A stretch of 64,000 nucleotides of DNA, taken from assembly GCA_965219995.1 (NCBI GenBank), contig CBDCOX010000002.1, positions 3,136,001 to 3,200,000 of the forward strand, given 5' to 3'. Positions 7,075 through 55,033 of the stretch are shown piece after piece (the first letter of the stretch is position 1; the number at the start of each line of letters is the position of its first letter). The stretch comes from Candidatus Latescibacterota bacterium (GTDB lineage: Bacteria; Latescibacterota; UBA2968; GCA-2709665). The translations under genes and the position numbers were made by a program. The notes under the pieces were generated by a model, which was not told the origin of the DNA, did not search any database, and was given only the letters and a program-made list of their open reading frames with translations.

Positions 7075-7110
7075 GGGGGTTCCCTTTCGTTGGGCGCGAT
7101 GGCCGAATGG

Positions 7111-7661
7111 TAAAAGGCGGGGAGACGTAAGACGGGAGACGTGAGATGATGTCACCGCGACGGCCGGATTTCGATACGGACCGGCGGAATCTATCCGCGA
7201 TACGGGCGGGACCGCTCCACCCGGCCCACTACCCCGGGTGAGACGTAAGACGGGAGATGATGACCCTTCGCCCATCGGGTATCGATACGGACTCGCGATA
7301 TCTACCTCTGATGTCGAAGGCCCTACCCCCAGCCCCCAACCCCGGGGAGACGTTAGACGGGAGACGGGAGATGATATGAGTGCCCTAAAGGCGGGGAGAC
7401 GTTAGACGTGAGAAGGGAGAGATTGTCTGCCCGTTGCGGTTTCATTTCTAGCCGGAGGCATTAAGCGAGAATCAATCGGGCAAGGATTTCCTCTACCGTC
7501 TACCCTCTCACGTCTCACCGCTTTTTTCTACCGTCTTGCGTCTTACGTCTAACGGGTTTTATTGCCCCGTGTGGTTTCACATCTTGCCAGGGGCATTAAG
7601 GTAGAATCAATTTGGCAAGGATGTCATCTACCGTCTAACGTCTACCCTCTCCCCGCTTTTA
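7111..7661 (+). repeat. Heptamer-arm element array (L-D-L-D-L-L-C-R-R-C-R)
   Basis: Fills the rpsR-rplI gap; the right terminus CCCCGCTTTTA contains the rpsR stop codon. Confidence 0.9.
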
Positions 7662-10914: not shown

Positions 10915-11244
10915 AAAAGGCGGTGAGACGGGAGACGGGAGACGGGAGATGATCACCCTTCGCCCATCGGATATCGATACGGACTCGCGATATCTACCTG
11001 CGATACCGAAGGAACCCTAAAAAGCGGTGAAACGGGAGATACCGTGAGCGCCCTAAAGGCGGTGAGACGGGAGACGTGAGACGTGAGATGATATCAGTGC
11101 CCCAAAGGCGGGGAGACGTTAGAGGTAAGACGGGAGATGATATGAGTGCCCGTGCGGATTCATATCTTGCCAGAGGCATTTAGCTAGAACCAATCGGGCA
11201 CGGACGTCATCTACCGTCTCCCCTCTCCCGTCTCCCCGCCTTTA
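10915..11244 (+). repeat. Heptamer-arm element array (L-D-L-L-L-C-R)
   Basis: Spans from the hppA RBS to the pth stop codon, which lies inside the terminus CCCCGCCTTTA. Confidence 0.9.
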
Positions 11245-11799
11245 TGAATTAAACCGATTCATCGCCTCGTCAATGCCGGATTCCATCCAGCATGCCGCCC
11301 CGGAGGCGGCCGCGCGGATCGCCGCGTTTACGGTGTCGCGCTCATCGTCTTCGAACGGGTTCAGGACGTGCTCGATCCGGTCCGCGCCTTCCGGCGGCGC
11401 CCCGATGCCCACCCGCAGCCGGGGAAACGCCCCGGATCCCGCGCAATCGATAATCGACGCCAGCCCGTTATGCCCCCCGTCGCTGCCGCCGCGCCGCAGC
11501 CGGATCCGGCCCAGGTCCAGGTGGACGTCGTCCACGACCACCAGGGCTTCCTCGATGCCGACTTCGAAACGATCCAGGACCTGCGCCACCGCAACGCCGC
11601 TGCGATTCATGTACGTGGTCGGCTTCACCAGCATCAGCGTCCGGTCGTCCTTCCCGATCCGGCAAAAAAAATACCAGGCGCTTTCCGACCAGGTCCCCTT
11701 CAGCCTTGACGCCAGCAGGTTCACCACCCGATAGCCCAGGTTGTGGCGGGTATGAGCGTATTCGGAACCCGGGTTGCCCAGACCCACGACAACCTTCAC
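11242..11799 (-). CDS. pth: Peptidyl-tRNA hydrolase
   Basis: VVGLGNPG..Y.HTRHNLG, KPTTYMNRSG, GGSDGGHNGL, FPRLRVGIG. Confidence 0.98.
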   Translation of the reverse strand: MKVVVGLGNPGSEYAHTRHNLGYRVVNLLASRLKGTWSESAWYFFCRIGKDDRTLMLVKPTTYMNRSGVAVAQVLDRFEVGIEEALVVVDDVHLDLGRIRLRRGGSDGGHNGLASIIDCAGSGAFPRLRVGIGAPPEGADRIEHVLNPFEDDERDTVNAAIRAAASGAACWMESGIDEAMNRFNS

Positions 11800-11809
11800 G
11801 AGAACCCCC

Positions 11810-12090
11810 TAAAAACGGTGAGACGGGAGACGGGAGATGATTACCCTTCGTCCATCGGATATCGATACGGACTCGCGATATCTACCTCTGATGTCGAAGG
11901 CCCTACCCCCAACCCCGGGGAGACGGGAGACGTGAGACGGGAGATGATGTGAATGCTCTATGGTTTTTCTAGTCGCTATGATAACGGTAAATTAGTAGGC
12001 ACGGTTTTTGTGGAAACACTGCTGTAAATGTCTTCATCTACCGTCTACTTACGTCTCACCTCTTTCAGGTTTTTCCTCTACAGTCTTACC
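11810..12090 (+). repeat. Heptamer-arm element array (L-D-L-B-R), left flank of the four-helix-bundle gene
   Basis: Near-identical to 12513-12800. Confidence 0.9.
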
Positions 12091-12094
12091 GAAG

Positions 12095-12463
12095 CTAAGA
12101 TGATACTCTGCTTATCAATCCTGACAGCAAACCAAACAATCGATTCATTGTTTTTATTATTGATTGAACGTCATCTTCCGAACACATTTGGAGGCTTAGT
12201 GCAATTTCAAGCTGAGTATCCAACTCAACCAACGAACTCCTGGCGATTTCCAGAAATCTTTTGCGTTCAGAACTCGAAGATCTCGCCGACCCTTCGGCAA
12301 TGTTGGACGGTATTGAGACAGCAGATCGTCGTAACTGGCCGGTTAGGCCATAAAGTTCGGCGGAGGGGAATTCAGCGGTCAGCGTATAAATCTCGTTGAC
12401 CAGATCAATGCTCTTTTTCCATACCACAAGCTTCTTGTGGCTGAGTTCCATCATCGCGTGCAA
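12095..12463 (-). CDS. Four-helix-bundle protein (23S rRNA-IVS / S23 / Avd-like family)
   Basis: HKKLVVWKKSIDLV.EIY.LT..FP..ELYGLTGQLRRSAVSIPSNIAEG...FLEIARSSLVELDTQLEIA signature; visibly AT-richer than its neighbours; start may be ATG 12454. Confidence 0.93.
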   Translation of the reverse strand: MHAMMELSHKKLVVWKKSIDLVNEIYTLTAEFPSAELYGLTGQLRRSAVSIPSNIAEGSARSSSSERKRFLEIARSSLVELDTQLEIALSLQMCSEDDVQSIIKTMNRLFGLLSGLISRVSS

Positions 12464-12494
12464 GCGCTATCGTTCCTCCCCGCAGCCCCCAACC

Positions 12495-12908
12495 CCGGGG
12501 AGACGGTAGACGTAAGACGGGAGATGATTACCCTTCGCCCATCGGATATCGATACGGACTCGCGATATCTACCTCTGATGTCGAAGGCCCTACCCCCAAC
12601 CCCGGGGAGACGGGAGACGTGAGACGGGAGATGATGTGAGTGCCTGAAGAGCGGGTAGACGTTAGACGGGAGACGGGAGATACCGTGAGTGCCCTATGGT
12701 TTTTCTTGATTGCTACGATAACGGTAAATTAGCAGGCACGGTTTGTGTAGAAACACTGCTGTAAATGTCTTCATCTACCGTCTACCCTCTTACGTCTCAC
12801 CGGTTCTATTGCCCCGTGTGGTTTCACATCTTGCCAGAGGCATTGAGTAAGAACCAATGGGGCAAGGATGTTATCTACCGTCTACCCTCTCACGTCTCAC
12901 CGCTCTTA
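12495..12908 (+). repeat. Heptamer-arm element array (L-D-L-L-B-R-C-R), right flank
   Basis: Terminus CACCGCTCTTA includes the rplY stop codon. Confidence 0.9.
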
Positions 12909-13592
12909 TTCTTCGTCGTCCTCGTCTTCGTCCTTCTTGCCGCGTTCGATGACTTCGGGTTCCTGCATCTCTTCTTCTTCCTCGAGCACCTCTTCCTCTT
13001 CCTCTTCGACCTGAGCGATTGAAGGCGGAACCACGACAAACACGGACCGGTCGCTCTCGGTAACGATCTCCACGTCGCCGGACACGCTCAGATCGGAGAC
13101 GTGCACCGAGTCTCCGATATTCAGATGGTTCACGTCGAACCCGATGCTTTCCGGGATCTCGGCGGGCAGACACGACACCTCCACCTGGTGCAGCAACTGC
13201 TCCAGAATACCGCCTTCCGTGCGGACGCCGGCGGGAATGCCCTGGGGTTCGACGCGAACGTCCACGACGATTTTCTGGGTGAGCGAGATCCGGTAGAAGT
13301 CCGCGTGGAGGAGATGACCGCCAACGGGGTGGTGCTGCAGCTCCTTGACGATGGCGGTGTCTTCGGATTGATCCTCGCCGTTGCCCACAACCAGGGACAG
13401 AAGCGTATTCCGGCCGTGTTCGTGCAAGACCGTTGACAACGCCTTCGCATCGACCGAACAGGCGACGGACGCGCCGCGGTCGCCATAGACCACCGCGGGA
13501 ATCCTCCCGGTACGCCGGATGCGCTTGGCCTCGCCCTTTCCGGTTCCGGAGCGTACTTCGGCCTGCAAACTTACGCCGTTATTGTCAGCCAT
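12906..13592 (-). CDS. rplY: 50S ribosomal protein L25/Ctc
   Basis: GKGEAKRIRRTGRIPAVVYG, QHHPV..HLLHADF, GVRTEGGIL, EPEVIERGKKDE. Confidence 0.97.
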   Translation of the reverse strand: MADNNGVSLQAEVRSGTGKGEAKRIRRTGRIPAVVYGDRGASVACSVDAKALSTVLHEHGRNTLLSLVVGNGEDQSEDTAIVKELQHHPVGGHLLHADFYRISLTQKIVVDVRVEPQGIPAGVRTEGGILEQLLHQVEVSCLPAEIPESIGFDVNHLNIGDSVHVSDLSVSGDVEIVTESDRSVFVVVPPSIAQVEEEEEEVLEEEEEMQEPEVIERGKKDEDEDDEE

Positions 13593-13635
13593 TGACCGAT
13601 CCTCCACATTTTTTTACCAGAACTGCGGTTTTGCA

Positions 13636-20769: not shown

Positions 20770-21463
20770 AAGCGGGGAGACGTTAGACGGGAGACGGGAG
20801 ATGATCACCCTTCGCCCATCGGATATCGATACGGACTGGCGATATCTACCTGCGATACCGAAGGCCCCTCCCCGCACCCCTCGCCCCCGCAAACCTCTCC
20901 CCCCGGCCCCTCAACCCCGGGGTAGACGTAAGACGTGAGACGGGAGATACCGTGAGTGCCCTATGGTTTTTCTTGATTGCTACGATAACGGTAAAATAGC
21001 AGGCACGGTTTGTGTAGAAACACTGCTGTAAATGTCTTCATCTACCGTCTACCCTCTTACGTCTCACCGGTCTTATTGCCCGCTGTGGTTTCACTTCTTG
21101 CCGGAGGCACAAGGGTAGAACCAATTGGGCAAGGATGTCTTCTACCGTCTACCCTCTCCCGTCTCCCCGAATTTACGCAGACCTCTCCCCCCGGCCCCTC
21201 AACCCCGGGGTAGACGTAAGACGTGAGACGGGAGATACCGTGAGTGCCCTATGGTTTTTCTTGATTGCTACGATAACGGTAAAATAGCAGGCACGGTTTG
21301 TGTAGAAACACTGCTGTAAATGTCTTCATCTACCGTCTACCCTCTTACGTCTCACCGGTTTTATTGCCCGCTGTGGTTTCACTTCTTGCCGGAGGCACAA
21401 AGGTAGAACCAATCGGGCAAAGATGTCATCTGCCGTCTCACGTCTACCGTCTTACCGCTTTTT
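20770..21463 (+). repeat. Heptamer-arm element array with a 288-bp tandem duplication
   Basis: L-D-[L-B-R-C-R]x2; units start at 20893 and 21181. Confidence 0.92.
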
Positions 21464-29989: not shown

Positions 29990-30135
29990 AGGCCCTGCCC
30001 TGAGCCGTTCCCTGAGCTTGTCGAAGGGCCGGCGAAGGGTCGAAGGGCCGGCGAAGGGTCGAGGGCTACTTGAGTGCGGGCATTTCGACAAGCCACTTCG
30101 GCAAGCTCAGCGCAAGCAATGACCACGCGTGGAAA
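29990..30135. repeat. CTGAGCTTGTCGAA(G/A)-type palindromic repeat cluster, left flank of the GIY-YIG gene
   Basis: CCCTGAGCTTGTCGAAGGG...GGGCATTTCGACAAGC...AATGACCACG. Confidence 0.85.
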
Positions 30136-30539: not shown

Positions 30540-30712
30540 AACGCGGGCATTTCGACAAGCTCAATGACCACGCATGGATAAGTTCAACAAACGTGATTGA
30601 CCCACGCCCGCAGCCGTTCCCTGAGCATGCGTTGCCCTGAGCCTGTCGAAGGGTCGAAGGGCCGGCGAAGGGCTACTTGAACGCGGGCATTTCGAGAAGC
30701 TCATTGTCCACG
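30540..30712. repeat. Same repeat cluster, right flank of the GIY-YIG gene
   Basis: GCGGGCATTTCGACAAGCTCAATGACCACG, CCCTGAGCCTGTCGAAGGG; overlaps the uvrC stop codon. Confidence 0.85.
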
Positions 30713-38085: not shown

Positions 38086-38603
38086 TGTTCGATCCGGATT
38101 CCGCGGGCCGGAAGGTCCTTACGCTGGAGCAGGCCCGGCGGGTCCGGCAGCGCCTGAAACGAAGCCGCGCCAGGCTGGTTTTCACGAACGGCTGCTTCGA
38201 CCTGATCCATCCCGGCCACGTCGCTTTCCTGCAGCGGGCCCGCTCGCTGGGCGACGCGCTCCTCCTGGGCCTCAACAGCGACGATTCCGTCCGGCGCATC
38301 AAGGGCCGGGGCCGGCCGATTCTCACGGCCGAGGAACGGACCGTCGTGCTTGCGGGCCTGGAAGCCGTGGACTATATCTGCGTGTTCGAGGAGGACACCC
38401 CGCACAATCTCGTCCGGGAACTCCTGCCCGACGTCCTCGTGAAGGGCGGGGACTATTCGCCGGACCAGATCGTCGCCCGCGAGGTGGTCGAAGACGCCGG
38501 GGGGCGCGCGGCCACCGTGTCCACCGCGTTCAACACCTCCACGTCGTCCATCATTGAACGGATAAGGCAGCGATCAGCGGTCGGCAGTCAGCAGTCAGCT
38601 TGA
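38085..38603 (+). CDS. rfaE2: Heptose-1-phosphate adenylyltransferase (RfaE domain II)
   Basis: VFTNGCFDLIHPGH, GLNSDDSVRRIKG.GRP, PDVLVKGGDY, STSSII; GTG overlaps the hisB TAG. Confidence 0.9.
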   Translation: MFDPDSAGRKVLTLEQARRVRQRLKRSRARLVFTNGCFDLIHPGHVAFLQRARSLGDALLLGLNSDDSVRRIKGRGRPILTAEERTVVLAGLEAVDYICVFEEDTPHNLVRELLPDVLVKGGDYSPDQIVAREVVEDAGGRAATVSTAFNTSTSSIIERIRQRSAVGSQQSA

Positions 38604-48651: not shown

Positions 48652-51600
48652 ATGCGAAACTCCATCCATCGTGTTCCCGCGGTTGAGGGTTTGAGTGTGT
48701 CTGTATTCCTCGCTGTCGCACTTTTCATTTCGTCAGCGTCCATCGGCCACGCCTCGGTCCGTGACGGCGACGGCGCGCCGGTCTGCGAGCCGATTGATTT
48801 TTCGAGGGCGCCGCTCGAGGGCGCGGACGTCGCCGGGAAGCGGGCGTTCAACCTGAATACGGGCGATCCCCGCGCGGTGCGGGTGGTTTATTTCGTGCCG
48901 GCAGACAGTCTGTTTCGCCCCGCCGTGGAGGATTCGATCCGGCGGGCGATCCGGCGGATCCGGACCTTTTATGCCGAACAGATGGAGGCGCATGGCTACG
49001 GCAACCGAACGTTCGACGTAGAGACCGGCGACGACGGAGCGCCGCGGATCCATCGCGTTACGGGACAGCACGCCGAGGACCGCTACGCCGGCGACCAAAG
49101 GCATTCCAGGGTGTTCAGCGAGATCCGGCAGAATTTCGATACCGGCGCGAACGTCTATGTCGCCGTTATCGACTATATTCGCAGTCCCACCGCGAGGGGC
49201 GGCAGACGGGGGAAAATCGGCGGCGAGGCGTCGGTCGGCGGGAATTTCAAATGGGAGACGGTTGCCCACGAACTGGGACACACATTCGGCCTGGAGCACG
49301 ATTTTCGCGACGGCGATTACATCATGTCGTATAGCAACAGACAGAATCGGATTTCGGCTTGCGCGGCCGAATTCCTCTCTGTGAACCCCTATTTCAATGC
49401 CGGAAGATCGATCGACCAGGCGCAGCCGCCATCCATCGAACTCCTGTCGCCCAGGCGTTATCCCGCCGGCTCGAAGAGCGTCCTGTTGCAGCTCAGAGTC
49501 GAAGATCCGCAGGGGCTGCATCAGGTGACGCTGTTCGCGACAACGAGTACGATACGCCCGGGCTTTCCGAGGGGGTATTATGAAGTAACGGCATGCCGTG
49601 GACTGCCGAACGGGACGCATGCGGTTGTCGAGTTTGAATACGACGGCGATATCCCGTCTTCTTCAGGTTCCGCGCTTCCTGACACGGTTGCGCATCCGCT
49701 CCATGTCAAGGCCGTTGACAAAGACGGAAACGTCGGCCGGTTGTCCCTTGACCTCGTCGAAATCTCCGCGCACCACGTCGCGGCGTTGGAAGGACATAGG
49801 GACCGGGTCGAATCCCTGGCCTTCTCGCCCGACGGGTCGATTCTGGCATCCGGATCGTCTGACGATGCCGCCAGGCTTTGGGACGTCGCCGGTCGGGAGC
49901 AACTCGCCACGCTCCGACAAGCGGGGCGTATAAAATCCGTTTCCATCTCGCCCGACGGAAAAACCCTTGCGTCATCTTCGGATGACCATACGGTCAAACT
50001 CTGGGACCTCATTGAGCGGGAGCTAATTTCCGTCCTCAGAGGACATAAGAGTCCGGTCAATGGCGTGGCGTTTTCGCCGGACGGAAATTTGCTTGCCTCC
50101 GCTTCGGACGACCATTCAGTCCGGCTCTGGGACGTCGCAGAACGGGAACACACCGCCACGCTCGAAGGACACGCGAGTCCGGTCAATGGCGTGGCGTTTT
50201 CGCCGGACGGAAATCTGCTTGCCTCCGCTTCAAACGACCATTCAGTCCGGCTCTGGGACGTCGCAGAACGAGAACAAACCGCGATGCTCGAAGGACACGC
50301 GAGTCCGGTGAACGGCGTGGCGTTTTCGCCGGACGGAAATCTGCTCGCCTCCGCTTCGGACGACCATTCAGTCCGGCTCTGGGACATCGCAAAGCGAGAA
50401 CACGCCGCCACACTCGAAGGACACGCGAGTCCGGTGAACGGCGTGGCGTTTTCGCCGGACGGAAATCTGCTTGCCTCCGCTTCGGACGATCGAACCGTGC
50501 GGCTCCGGGACGTCGCAAAACGGGAACAGCTCGCGATTCTTCCGCATACTGACGCATTCGCTTCGGTCGTCTTTTCACCGGACGGTACGATCCTCGCCGC
50601 GGGTTCCGTCACGGTGGAATTATGGGAAACGTCCGGGTGGAGGCTGCCCCGCGCCGCGTCGTTGACGACAGTCTCAGGCGACAACCAGAAAGGCGCGGCG
50701 GGGGACGCATTGGCGAATCCCCTGGTTGTCGAAGTTCGAGACCAATACGATCAACCGTTGGCGGGTGCGCAGGTCACGTTTACGGTGATTGGCGGCGACG
50801 GAAGCGTGGGCAGTGGATTCACAACCGTCACCGCCACCGCCGGCCCGGACGGCAGGGCGCAAATCGTACTCACGCTGGGTCCGAACCCCGGGAAGAATAC
50901 GGTCGAGGCATCCATCGTCGGGTTCGAGGTGCAGACGTTTAACGCCGTGGGCGTCGGCACGCCTCCGGTTCCGGGTGCGGACCGCAACTATCCCACGCAG
51001 CATTTGCCGAAAAACGCCATCGTCCGCCTGGGAAAGGGCGCCATTGGCCGGACCGACAGGGCGATCGGGTTTTCTCCAGACGGGAAACGCTTCGCCGTGT
51101 CGAGCGGGGTCGGCGTCTGGCTTTACTCCGTGGACGATCTGGAGAGGGTCGCTCTGCTTCCCTCCGGCATCGTCCAGTCACTGGCCTTTTCGTCCGACGG
51201 CGCCACGATTGCGGCAGGCGGCAGCTGGAGGGAACACGCGGAGGTCAGGCTGTGGGACGCGGCAACGGGGACAAATACGGCCACGGTTGATTTCGAAAGC
51301 TGGGGGACGATATATCTGTCGCTTTCTCCGGACGGCCAAACCTTTGCTTACCCCGCCGGCGAAGGCGTCATCCATCGGTTGGACGCGGCCACCGGGAGGT
51401 CCGCGCCCCCTCTGGAGGGAGACTGGTCGGTTGGCCCCTCGATGTCCTTTTCTCCGGACAGTACAACCATAGCCGTGGCACACGAGGACGGAACGATCAC
51501 GCTCTGGGACCTGGCGGTACCCGCCAACAGCCTCACCCTGGAGGGACATCGCCGGGAGGTCGTCTCCGTGGCATTTTCTCCGGACGGGAGGGCTCTCGCG

Positions 51601-54209: not shown

Positions 54210-55033
54210 TATCCCGCCTGCCTGGCGGCAGGCACCCTTTCCTGAAGGAAAGGGGAAGGCGGGTGCTCGAGGTTTTCGCGAAGGTGAACATTTGCCGGCG
54301 CAGGCAGACAGGAATGTCTGCCCCACCCTCAAAACGACGCCTTTTGCGTGACGGTCGGGAGAAGGCGTGACGGAAACACTTCGCTTATGGCTATTGCCAT
54401 ACCTGTCATTCTGAGCGAAGCGAAGAATCTCCCGTCTTCTGGATCGTCCTATACACAGCGACGCGGTAAACACATTGGCGCGGACACATCTTCCGCCCTC
54501 TAGCTTCATCCCATGCCACAGGAGATCCTTCGGCGGCCTGTCGTTCTCAGCGACATCGAAAAGCCCCTACCAAAACGTGGTCATTGAGCTTGTCGAAATG
54601 CCCGTATTCAGGCAGCCCGTAATGCATTCGCAATCCCTTCGCCGGCCCTTCGACCCTTCGACAAGCTCAGGGCACCGCATGCTCAGGGAACGGCTCAGGG
54701 CGCGGACACATCTTCCGCCCTCTGGATTCAATCGAATGACAAGAGGCAGGCAGACAGGAATGTCTGCCCCACCCTCACAGCGGCTTCCTCGATGTCGTGA
54801 CAAGCGAACGGGGAGTGAACGTACCGCCTGCCAGCCCGCGGCGAATGACAGAACACGCTCGGGTATCATGCCATGCCGCAGTAGATCCTTCGTCAGCCTG
54901 CCTGCCGATGAGTCTCCGGCAGGCACAGCGGCTTCCTCAGGATGACAGTTTGGGCGATCGGCCGGCATGTCATTCTGAGCGACATCGAAGCAGGCAGACA
55001 GGAATGTCTGCCCCACCCTCACAGAGGATTCCC
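54210..55033. repeat. Mosaic of REP-like and GIY-YIG-flank-type repeats
   Basis: Three GGCAGACAGGAATGTCTGCCCCACCCTC copies; 54570-54700 is the reverse complement of the 30540-30680 motifs; 54818-55020 matches 33628-33825. Confidence 0.88.

Follow-up and report, generated by a model that had tools for sequence, protein, structure and literature searches.

A four-helix-bundle gene enclosed by inverted heptamer arrays in an operon spacer of a Candidatus Latescibacterota genome: a possible intervening-sequence-type cassette

Introduction

The intervening sequence (IVS) of the Coxiella burnetii 23S rRNA includes an open reading frame (ORF) known as S23p, a member of the PF05635 family, that is located in the loop of a 28-bp stem; three to four GACAGAT heptamers, whose number varies among strains, are found upstream of this ORF and the stem is cleaved by RNase III (PMC4990558, in the part of the text available). 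In the same part, the authors consider the Coxiella ORF to be decaying and probably untranslated, and the relative from Xanthomonas campestris (Protein Data Bank, PDB, entry 2GSC) is described as a homopentameric ring (PMC4990558). Here we describe a 64,000-bp stretch of DNA from a Candidatus Latescibacterota bacterium (assembly GCA_965219995.1, contig CBDCOX010000002.1, positions 3,136,001 to 3,200,000), hereafter referred to as the window, that includes a gene of the same family located in the spacer between the genes coding for ribosomal protein L25 and peptidyl-tRNA hydrolase (pth) and enclosed by short arrays of a 7-nucleotide word, GNNAGAC. To our knowledge the function of the PF05635/TIGR02436 proteins has been unexplained ever since their discovery in rRNA intervening sequences, and we know of no catalytic activity in PF05635. 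The locus joins this question to a second unexplained one, that of the tandem heptamer repeats present in bacterial spacers.

Repetitive extragenic palindromic sequences (REP), the bacterial interspersed mosaic elements (BIME) and the REP doublets forming hairpins (REPIN) that accompany the REP-associated tyrosine transposases (RAYT) are short palindromic intergenic repeats that reach hundreds of copies, build mosaics, occur as hairpin-forming inverted pairs and flank a single-copy gene. Miniature inverted-repeat transposable elements (MITEs) are internally deleted, non-autonomous partners of DNA transposons. The Avd-type relatives of PF05635 proteins are ring-shaped and bind nucleic acids. 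As for heptamers, the TAACTGA repeats of Beggiatoaceae are abundant intergenic tandems of unexplained function (PMC4679880) and the GGGGATT repeats of Xanthomonas and Nostoc are likewise intergenic tandem heptamers (PMC4692102), both as described in the parts of these reports available. The arrays dealt with here differ from them in being short (about 4 units), in forming inverted pairs and in being tied to a gene family; the terms "four helix", "intervening sequence", "23S" and "Avd" are all absent from the available text of PMC4679880. A general link between PF05635 and heptamer arrays was not found in the literature, subscription journals not being covered; only PMC4990558, in its available part, notes heptamers, and in a single IVS.

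The original prediction, made from the letters of the window, proposed that the gene plus its arms is the autonomous form of an element and that the gene-less units are non-autonomous derivatives of it, by analogy with RAYT/REPIN. This interpretation was partly supported. On balance, and with modest confidence, we favor considering the locus a rearranged IVS-type cassette, i.e. a gene within inverted arrays of about four GNNAGAC units, residing in the L25-pth operon inside a BIME-like mosaic, whose arrays would form a stem cut by RNase III and would recombine with one another, and whose protein would not mobilize them. The locus could then be described as an IVS-type cassette of operon spacers with MITE-like derivatives.

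Identification of the gene and its association with heptamer arrays

In what follows, G000 is the genome of the window, C2 its contig, and the remaining G and L numbers designate genomes of relatives and individual loci, respectively. The ORF at nucleotides 12095-12463 (minus strand) codes for 122 amino acids when translated from a TTG codon and for 119 amino acids from the ATG at 12454. Since the eight orthologous copies of the genus all have 119 codons from the ATG-ATG/TTG start, the ATG at 12454 is probably the true start. The product matched PF05635 (E = 1.5e-36; 125.2 bits, cut-off 33.8; profile positions 1-105 of 106) and TIGR02436 (E = 7.2e-35; 119.5 bits, cut-off 24), in agreement with its earlier assignment to the four-helix-bundle family of the 23S IVSs, and its nearest solved relative by sequence comparison is 2GSC from X. 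campestris (E = 9.8e-30, residues 7-118). The family is very large, with 3927 relatives at E ≤ 1e-5 in one search. The profile scans that gave PF05635 and TIGR02436, together with PADLOC, recognized no catalytic family in the gene product, and PADLOC found no defence family. Blastn analysis showed that the coding sequence (CDS) is covered once in the genome. Its G+C content is 44.8% versus 60.7% for the contig, a trough of 0.39-0.51 spans nucleotides 11925-12450, and the orthologues have a G+C content of 42-46% in every copy of the genus.

Three PF05635 genes are present in the genome, and all three are found within period-7 arrays, each with a different word: GNNAGAC around the window gene, GAATTNN/AATTCTT on both sides of the gene at C2:4903622, and a purine-rich GAAGAAx together with its complement around the gene at C2:2476256. 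A 90%-identical orthologue of the latter in G001 (L032) has identical words. With a different word for each of its paralogues, this genome lends itself to the question of word-specific binding. At C2:4903380-4904030 about 150 nt of the gene's own 3′ end are duplicated upstream, between two arrays, an arrangement suggestive of a tandem cassette copy of which half was deleted. At C2:2476050-2476860 the complement of the GAAGAAx word is found downstream of the gene in three successive blocks.

The same arrangement was observed in a sample of 80 loci encoding PF05635 relatives from many phyla, in which arrays were detected using Tandem Repeats Finder (TRF). The density of period-7 arrays is 2.31 per kb up to 300 nt from the gene and 0.258 per kb at distances of more than 600 nt; a mild enrichment near the gene was also seen for period 8 (0.297 versus 0.101 per kb), and none for periods 6 (0.042 near, 0.111 far) and 9 (0.106 and 0.136). 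An array of period 7, 14 or 21 was found within 300 nt of the gene in 63 of the 80 loci, and on both sides of it in 47. Period-7 arrays were present in 81 of 126 gaps adjacent to the gene and in 50 of 269 other gaps of the same loci, an odds ratio of 7.9 obtained with crude ORF calls and with related genomes that are not independent. The words vary from locus to locus, the median array length is 4.3 units, and among the 44 loci whose gene has period-7 arrays both upstream and downstream, 37 have the downstream word as the reverse complement of the upstream one, 6 have it in direct orientation and one is tied. The enrichment of flanking heptamer arms around homologues that the original prediction called for is therefore present, and the gene and its heptamer arrays are one element type, real and widespread, that lives in ordinary operons.

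Gene-less derivatives and repeat populations

Defining an array as at least three in-phase AGAC/GTCT units of the 7-nucleotide word GNNAGAC or its complement, there are 135 forward and 120 reverse arrays in the genome. Eight control 4-mers and the reversed pattern yielded none, and GAGA/TCTC, which overlaps the word, yielded 38/25. The densest 100-kb bin, with 40 arrays, is the one that holds the gene locus. Three types of spacer are found between arrays, named sp1, sp2 and sp3, with a blastn cover of the genome of about 17-27, 63-77 and 170-190 fold, respectively; copies of at least 35 nt number 8, 64 and 91, for a total of 163 units.

The relationship of some of these units to the cassette is best seen in G003, where a non-coding unit (L005) aligns with the cassette at both ends: its nucleotides 21-104 are 76% identical to cassette nucleotides 4-87, through the start codon and four further codons, and nucleotides 133-225 are 82% identical to 422-514, beginning 13 nt before the stop codon. 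In this unit 28 nt take the place of 334 nt of CDS. The sp2 unit of the window (positions 47-151 of the unit) aligns with nucleotides 419-522 of the L005 cassette (105 nt, 66%, E = 2e-9), the match beginning 15 nt ahead of the stop codon. Since this match to the cassette tail includes the end of the gene, the sp2 family is a set of internally deleted cassette copies. These units resemble MITEs in that both ends are kept and the middle is lost, the L005 unit retaining from the CDS the start codon plus four codons at one end and 13 nt at the other; termini shared in the absence of the interior are thus found in the L005 unit, and the window sp2 aligns to the tail. They differ in that the cassette has no transposase, no terminal inverted repeat of unique sequence and no recognized target-site duplication. 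On the other hand, blastn detected no likeness of sp3 and sp1 to the cassette except for the arrays. The proposed descent of gene-less units from gene plus arms consequently holds for sp2 and the L005 unit and does not extend to sp3 and sp1.

All 26 spacer units of the window (12 sp3, 7 sp2 and 7 sp1, between 5700 and 53400) have the same orientation regardless of the direction of the neighboring genes, and upstream, at about C2:3.01-3.12 Mb, most units are oppositely oriented. Adjacent units are co-oriented in 54 of 54 pairs separated by less than 1 kb, in 27 of 36 at 1-10 kb and in 29 of 61 at 10-100 kb. This co-orientation of neighbors suggests local copying. With respect to flanking genes, as defined by crude gene calls, orientation is unbiased (31:32 for sp3 and 20:22 for sp2), as expected of symmetrical hairpins, and an impression gained from a few loci, that gene-less units are co-directional with transcription, was discarded on these genome-wide figures. 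A single-strand, replication-linked insertion was also rejected: unit orientation is independent of the local GC skew (67/28 versus 47/21; the cumulative GC skew of the assembly is irregular) and of gene-strand bias.

Distribution and relocation within the genus

Orthologues with at least 83% identity were found in 7 of the 15 genomes of the genus, G014 having two. Sites and directions were assigned by reading of the flanking sequences. The gene is located between the L25 gene and pth in G000, between rpsR and rplI in G006, G011 and G014, between MacA-like and MacB-like genes in G003, G013 and G014, and at a related repeat-rich site in G008. There are thus three or four types of site in the genus, and sister species carry the cassette in no fewer than three distinct operon spacers. 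It is co-directional with both neighbors in seven of the eight copies, the eighth being L003. The alternative sites in G000 (window 7075-7659 and C2:3321327-3321594) have arrays and lack the gene, and the rpsR-rplI site is only 4.5 kb away from the gene locus in this genome. The element thus leaves gene-less derivatives and relocates between spacers. The L25-pth spacer itself ranges from about 100 to 1106 nt across the genus; that of the relatives nearest by pth, G010 and G001, is filled with quite different repeat families, its content being wholly replaced among species.

The gene is under purifying selection, with a median ratio of nonsynonymous to synonymous substitutions (dN/dS) of 0.16 and a maximum of 0.33 (28 pairs, 8 orthologues). 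The window gene shows a dS of 0.24-0.64 from the other copies, comparable to the 0.36-0.51 obtained for the host pth gene, and the copy closest to it is of the rpsR-rplI type (dS 0.24-0.29). Given this selection and the pth-like dS, the cassette is old in the genus and has moved within genomes. A recent horizontal transfer between species is a needless assumption, as the dS of the gene is not below that of pth.

Organization of the L25-pth spacer

The features of the spacer and its surroundings are listed in Table 1. The direct repeats reported previously around an AT-rich 122-amino acid gene were confirmed: nucleotides 11821-11956 and 12508-12643 are 97% alike over 136 nt, nucleotides 11964-12048 and 12701-12785 are 89% alike over 85 nt, and on both sides of the gene the 136-nt block is followed by the 85-nt block, the right-hand copy having one additional array (about 12637-12685). 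Their interpretation as the pristine arms of the gene was not sustained. A 288-nt mosaic block composed of arrays, sp2 and sp3 is found at 20888-21452 in tandem (period 288, 96% identity) in the absence of any gene, and as read from the alignments the 136-nt blocks that flank the gene are two copies of a tandem mosaic block and not its own pristine arms. In the orthologues the equivalent of the linker at 12062-12094 comes after the 3′ array, so that about 90 nt, comprising the tail and the array proper to the gene, are absent from this locus, and full-length leaders are found in six copies elsewhere in the genome. As compared by eye with the orthologues, this gene copy is short of some 32 nt in its leader and is devoid of its 3′ tail and array; it is therefore a rearranged copy and not a pristine master. 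There are 21 inverted pairs between nucleotides 10800 and 13000.

The junctions between gene and arrays are upheld by read contigs from four runs, for example a 541-nt contig over 12019-12559 with zero differences; other joints derived from read contigs are uninformative, lying in repeats with tens of genomic copies. Rfam assigned no family to the repeats, its matches in the window consisting of one tRNA at the gathering threshold and a chance-level miRNA match (E = 0.73).

Table 1. Features of the L25-pth spacer and neighboring genes (positions in the window)
Feature	Position	Strand	Basis
Peptidyl-tRNA hydrolase gene (pth), downstream neighbor, co-directional with the cassette gene	11242-11799	-	Named from sequence
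Heptamer array, left block	11817-11841	+	Repeat analysis
Spacer type 1 (sp1), left copy	11842-11916	+	Repeat D2
Heptamer array, left block	11917-11949	+	Repeat analysis
Spacer type 2 (sp2), left copy, gene-less derivative homologous to the cassette 3′ tail	11950-12033	+	Repeat D5
Heptamer array of opposite sense at the 3′ end of the gene, putative second arm of the enclosing stem	12034-12061	+	Repeats, predicted fold
Linker, stop codon to array	12062-12094	-	Read by eye against orthologues
Four-helix-bundle gene, PF05635/TIGR02436	12095-12463	-	ORF, profile matches, 2GSC match, dN/dS
Truncated 5′ leader of the cassette, about 32 nt shorter than in orthologue cassettes	12464-12496	-	Read by eye
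Heptamer array at the 5′ end of the gene, putative stem arm: GGGGAGAC GGTAGAC GTAAGAC GGGAGAT GAT	12497-12528	+	Repeats, predicted fold
sp1, right copy	12529-12603	+	Repeat analysis
Heptamer array, right block, identical to 11917-11949 across the 43-nt family D1	12604-12636	+	Repeat analysis
Extra heptamer array, right block only	12653-12685	+	Repeat analysis
sp2, right copy	12686-12770	+	Repeat analysis, copy count
Heptamer array of opposite sense	12771-12803	+	Repeat analysis
Spacer type 3 (sp3), internal hairpin, commonest unit of the genome	12804-12872	+	Blastn cover, copy count
Heptamer array of opposite sense, ending 2 nt before the L25 stop codon	12873-12903	+	Repeat analysis
Ribosomal protein L25 gene, upstream neighbor, co-directional with the cassette gene	12906-13607	-	Named from sequence
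tRNA gene beyond the start side of the L25 gene	13636-13706	-	Sole Rfam match of the window at the gathering threshold

Proposed mechanism and comparison with known systems

Neither a sigma-70-like promoter upstream of the gene nor a terminator beside it was found. Among the 80 loci there are 48 in which the two flanks have the direction of the gene, 4 in which both are opposed to it and 15 with mixed flanks, the same-strand baseline for neighboring ORFs being 170/261. From the lack of these signals and the co-directional flanks, the gene appears to rely on transcription of the host operon. We propose that the gene would lack a promoter of its own and be carried on the host operon transcript, in which pairing of the arrays would give a stem, about 20-30 bp long, that, as in Coxiella, may be cut by RNase III, an enzyme encoded at C2:4745112-4745774. 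In both the minimum free energy and the centroid predicted folds, the array at 12497-12528 pairs with that at 12034-12061, enclosing the gene (z = -2.74, with 1 of 100 shuffled sequences as good). The arrays of the L005 cassette also pair around the gene in the predicted fold (z = -1.67), and the predicted fold of the sp2 unit is a hairpin closed by its arrays (z = -2.9 and -1.9). Relocation of the cassette and of the units lacking the gene from one array-bearing spacer to another, usually a nearby one, would proceed through recombination, gene conversion or template switching at the arrays, with no cassette-encoded enzyme; these would be the simplest mechanisms. The protein most likely binds its own heptamer stem, a role that fits its ring-shaped relatives, and would not be the engine of repeat multiplication. 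Such putative binding would explain that each clade keeps its own word.

The likeness to the Coxiella IVS, as far as that element is described in the available text of PMC4990558, includes the same protein family in the loop of a stem, a 5′ arm built from heptamers and the lack of a transposase. The Coxiella IVS is transcribed within the host transcript, and the same design may apply to the window cassette. A defining trait of an ORF-bearing IVS, namely that terminal inverted repeats pair into a stem whose loop holds the ORF, is found here in the predicted fold. The location is different, as the 23S IVSs are inserted in helix 25 or 45 and the cassette lies between the L25 gene and pth, and here the cassette is accompanied by derivatives that lack the gene (sp2, about 64 units) in a genome with at least 250 arrays. 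Because of the matching features, the design of the cassette can be read as that of an IVS located outside rRNA. Avd of the diversity-generating retroelements (DGRs) is a distantly related four-helix bundle: the window protein matched PF22296 with E = 0.0046 and NF033474 with 21.3 bits, scores far below the cut-offs (40 and 80 bits, respectively). A DGR context was absent, as the reverse transcriptase profile PF00078 had no match in the genome, which is 98.6% complete, and no pair of template and variable repeats was found. The profile of Y1 transposases, PF01797, had no match in the genome either.

Several points weigh against this proposal. The predicted stem of the window copy is imperfect, consisting of about 18-20 pairs with bulges, and the predicted folds of sp3 and sp1 do not surpass those of shuffled sequences (z = -1.24 to +0.49). 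That a stem is cut by RNase III at this locus would follow from the analogy with the Coxiella IVS taken together with a predicted fold, and recombination is read from patterns in which no junction or target duplication was resolved. The parallel with Coxiella is incomplete, since its ORF is considered to be decaying in the available part of PMC4990558 and the window gene has a dN/dS of 0.16. Finally, the constancy of words within clades and the correlation between protein and word distances described below would also follow from plain linkage.

Alternative explanations

The locus resembles the REP/BIME and REPIN-RAYT systems in its intergenic inverted pairs forming hairpins, its mosaics and its repeat-flanked gene, although among the units only sp2 clearly surpasses shuffled sequences in its fold. 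A first alternative, close to the original prediction, is that the protein acts in trans on the heptamer-armed units, mobilizing or maintaining them like a RAYT acting on its REPINs, the gene plus arms being autonomous and the dispersed units its dependants; we regard it as unlikely. It would account for the three paralogues with three words and for gene-less units as deletion derivatives. It also predicts a common history of protein and word, and clades do keep their words: the GAAGGAA type is common to G000 and G001 (90% identity), and a 58%-identical relative from another family has (ACGTGAG)7, which is of the same word family. The expected co-phylogeny was detected, albeit weakly (Mantel r = 0.163, a value reached by none of 2000 permutations). 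Furthermore, 26 of 123 distant arrays share the word of the gene arms versus 4.1 ± 2.7 after shuffling (39 loci, other phyla), the gene lies in the bin richest in arrays, and arrays cluster near gene copies in three other complete genomes (G014, 13/66 arrays at up to 50 kb; G013, 8/20 at up to 7 kb; G008, 2/11 at up to 12 kb). However, the clade words, the Mantel link, the clustering and the distant shared words also follow from linkage plus short-range copying, and a unit taken at random would land in the densest bin with a probability of about 0.16 (40/255).

The comparison within the genus speaks against dependence of the repeats on the protein, the part of the interpretation that was not supported. 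Arrays are present in all 15 genomes and the orthologue in 7, so that the co-occurrence of repeat and gene that characterizes REPIN-RAYT is not observed, and the counts are no higher in the genomes that have an orthologue (251, 12, 22, 11, 96, 20 and 66) than in those that do not (35, 32, 8, 36, 19, 28, 84 and 8). In the nearest relatives, which lack an orthologue, sp2 units number 36 (G010) and 10 (G001). The identity of sp2 units to their nearest neighbor is at least 97% for 4 of 20 in G010 (20 of 36 copies sampled) and 24 of 63 in G000, a comparison confounded by sample size. G022 and G034, single-contig genomes from another family, have 605 and 204 matches to the pattern with zero PF05635 matches, matches that may be unrelated to the present case. 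At G022 C1:511294-511499 and G034 C1:284773-285076 they consist of long homogeneous (GGGAGAC)n or (GTAAGAC)n tandems of about 30-40 units, with no mosaic, which may represent an independent phenomenon. In G000, about 40 TCAGCNN arrays and two families of 8-mers have no linked gene, sp3, the commonest unit, shares nothing with the cassette beyond the arrays, and no catalytic activity is known to us in the protein family. There are also differences of construction: the REPIN-RAYT gene codes for a Y1 (IS200/IS605-like) transposase and the gene in the window for a PF05635 protein, PF01797 being unmatched genome-wide, and REPINs are built on a single palindrome, the arms in the window being arrays of a 7-nucleotide unit. 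These negative results limit the RAYT/REPIN analogy.

A related, more general idea, which we consider doubtful, is that PF05635 rings are word-specific readers of heptamers that promote the copying of segments bounded by their word, with no transposase, integrase or reverse transcriptase involved. If this were true, the 23S IVSs, the orphan heptamer repeats of bacteria and the mosaics of this genome would be products of one such system, and the genomes now devoid of the gene would hold fossil units.

Still less probable, in our opinion, is that the arrays are operator-like sites, at which a ring protein bound to arrays in DNA or mRNA would regulate neighboring operons, and that they spread through their use by the host and not through selfishness of the cassette. 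The location of the arrays between operon genes, the purifying selection on the protein and the words kept by its clades are compatible with this explanation, and heptamer repeats in other intergenic regions have been suggested to take part in regulation (PMC4679880, in the part available). In contrast, 8 of the 15 genomes of the genus have arrays and lack the protein, the complete turnover of the spacer between close species does not fit a conserved regulon, and the units show no bias of orientation with respect to flanking genes. The last alternative, coincidence, i.e. an ordinary small foreign gene in a repeat-rich spacer whose repeats are unrelated REP-like elements of the host, can draw on the repeat density of the window, the highest of the genome, on pth being also flanked by arrays on both sides and on the gene-less tandem block at 20888-21452, but it deserves hardly any credence because it is contradicted by the density of arrays near the gene (63 of 80 unrelated loci), the inversion of the arms, the comparison of gaps, the arrays with their own words around all three paralogues and the end of the gene retained in sp2 units.

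Other repeats in the window

Besides GNNAGAC arrays, the window includes TCAGCNN heptamers together with ACACAAAG/ACACGGAG octamers at 520-727, 1095-1119 and 38574-38599; neither the roughly 40 TCAGCNN arrays of the genome nor the two 8-mer families, of about 25 each, were found linked to a gene in it. Repeats of 8 and 19 nt of the GTCGAAGG type are located at 30020-30066, 30645-30661 and 54646-54662; the canonical word AAGGGTCG accounts for 25 TRF rows genome-wide, among which an associated gene was not found. A 126-nt tandem repeat at 50049-50528 (3.8 copies, 91%) is probably part of a region coding for a repeat protein. As for the TCAGCNN words, they flank another clade of PF05635 genes, whose products are 42-44% identical to the window protein, in G004, G007, G009 and G010.

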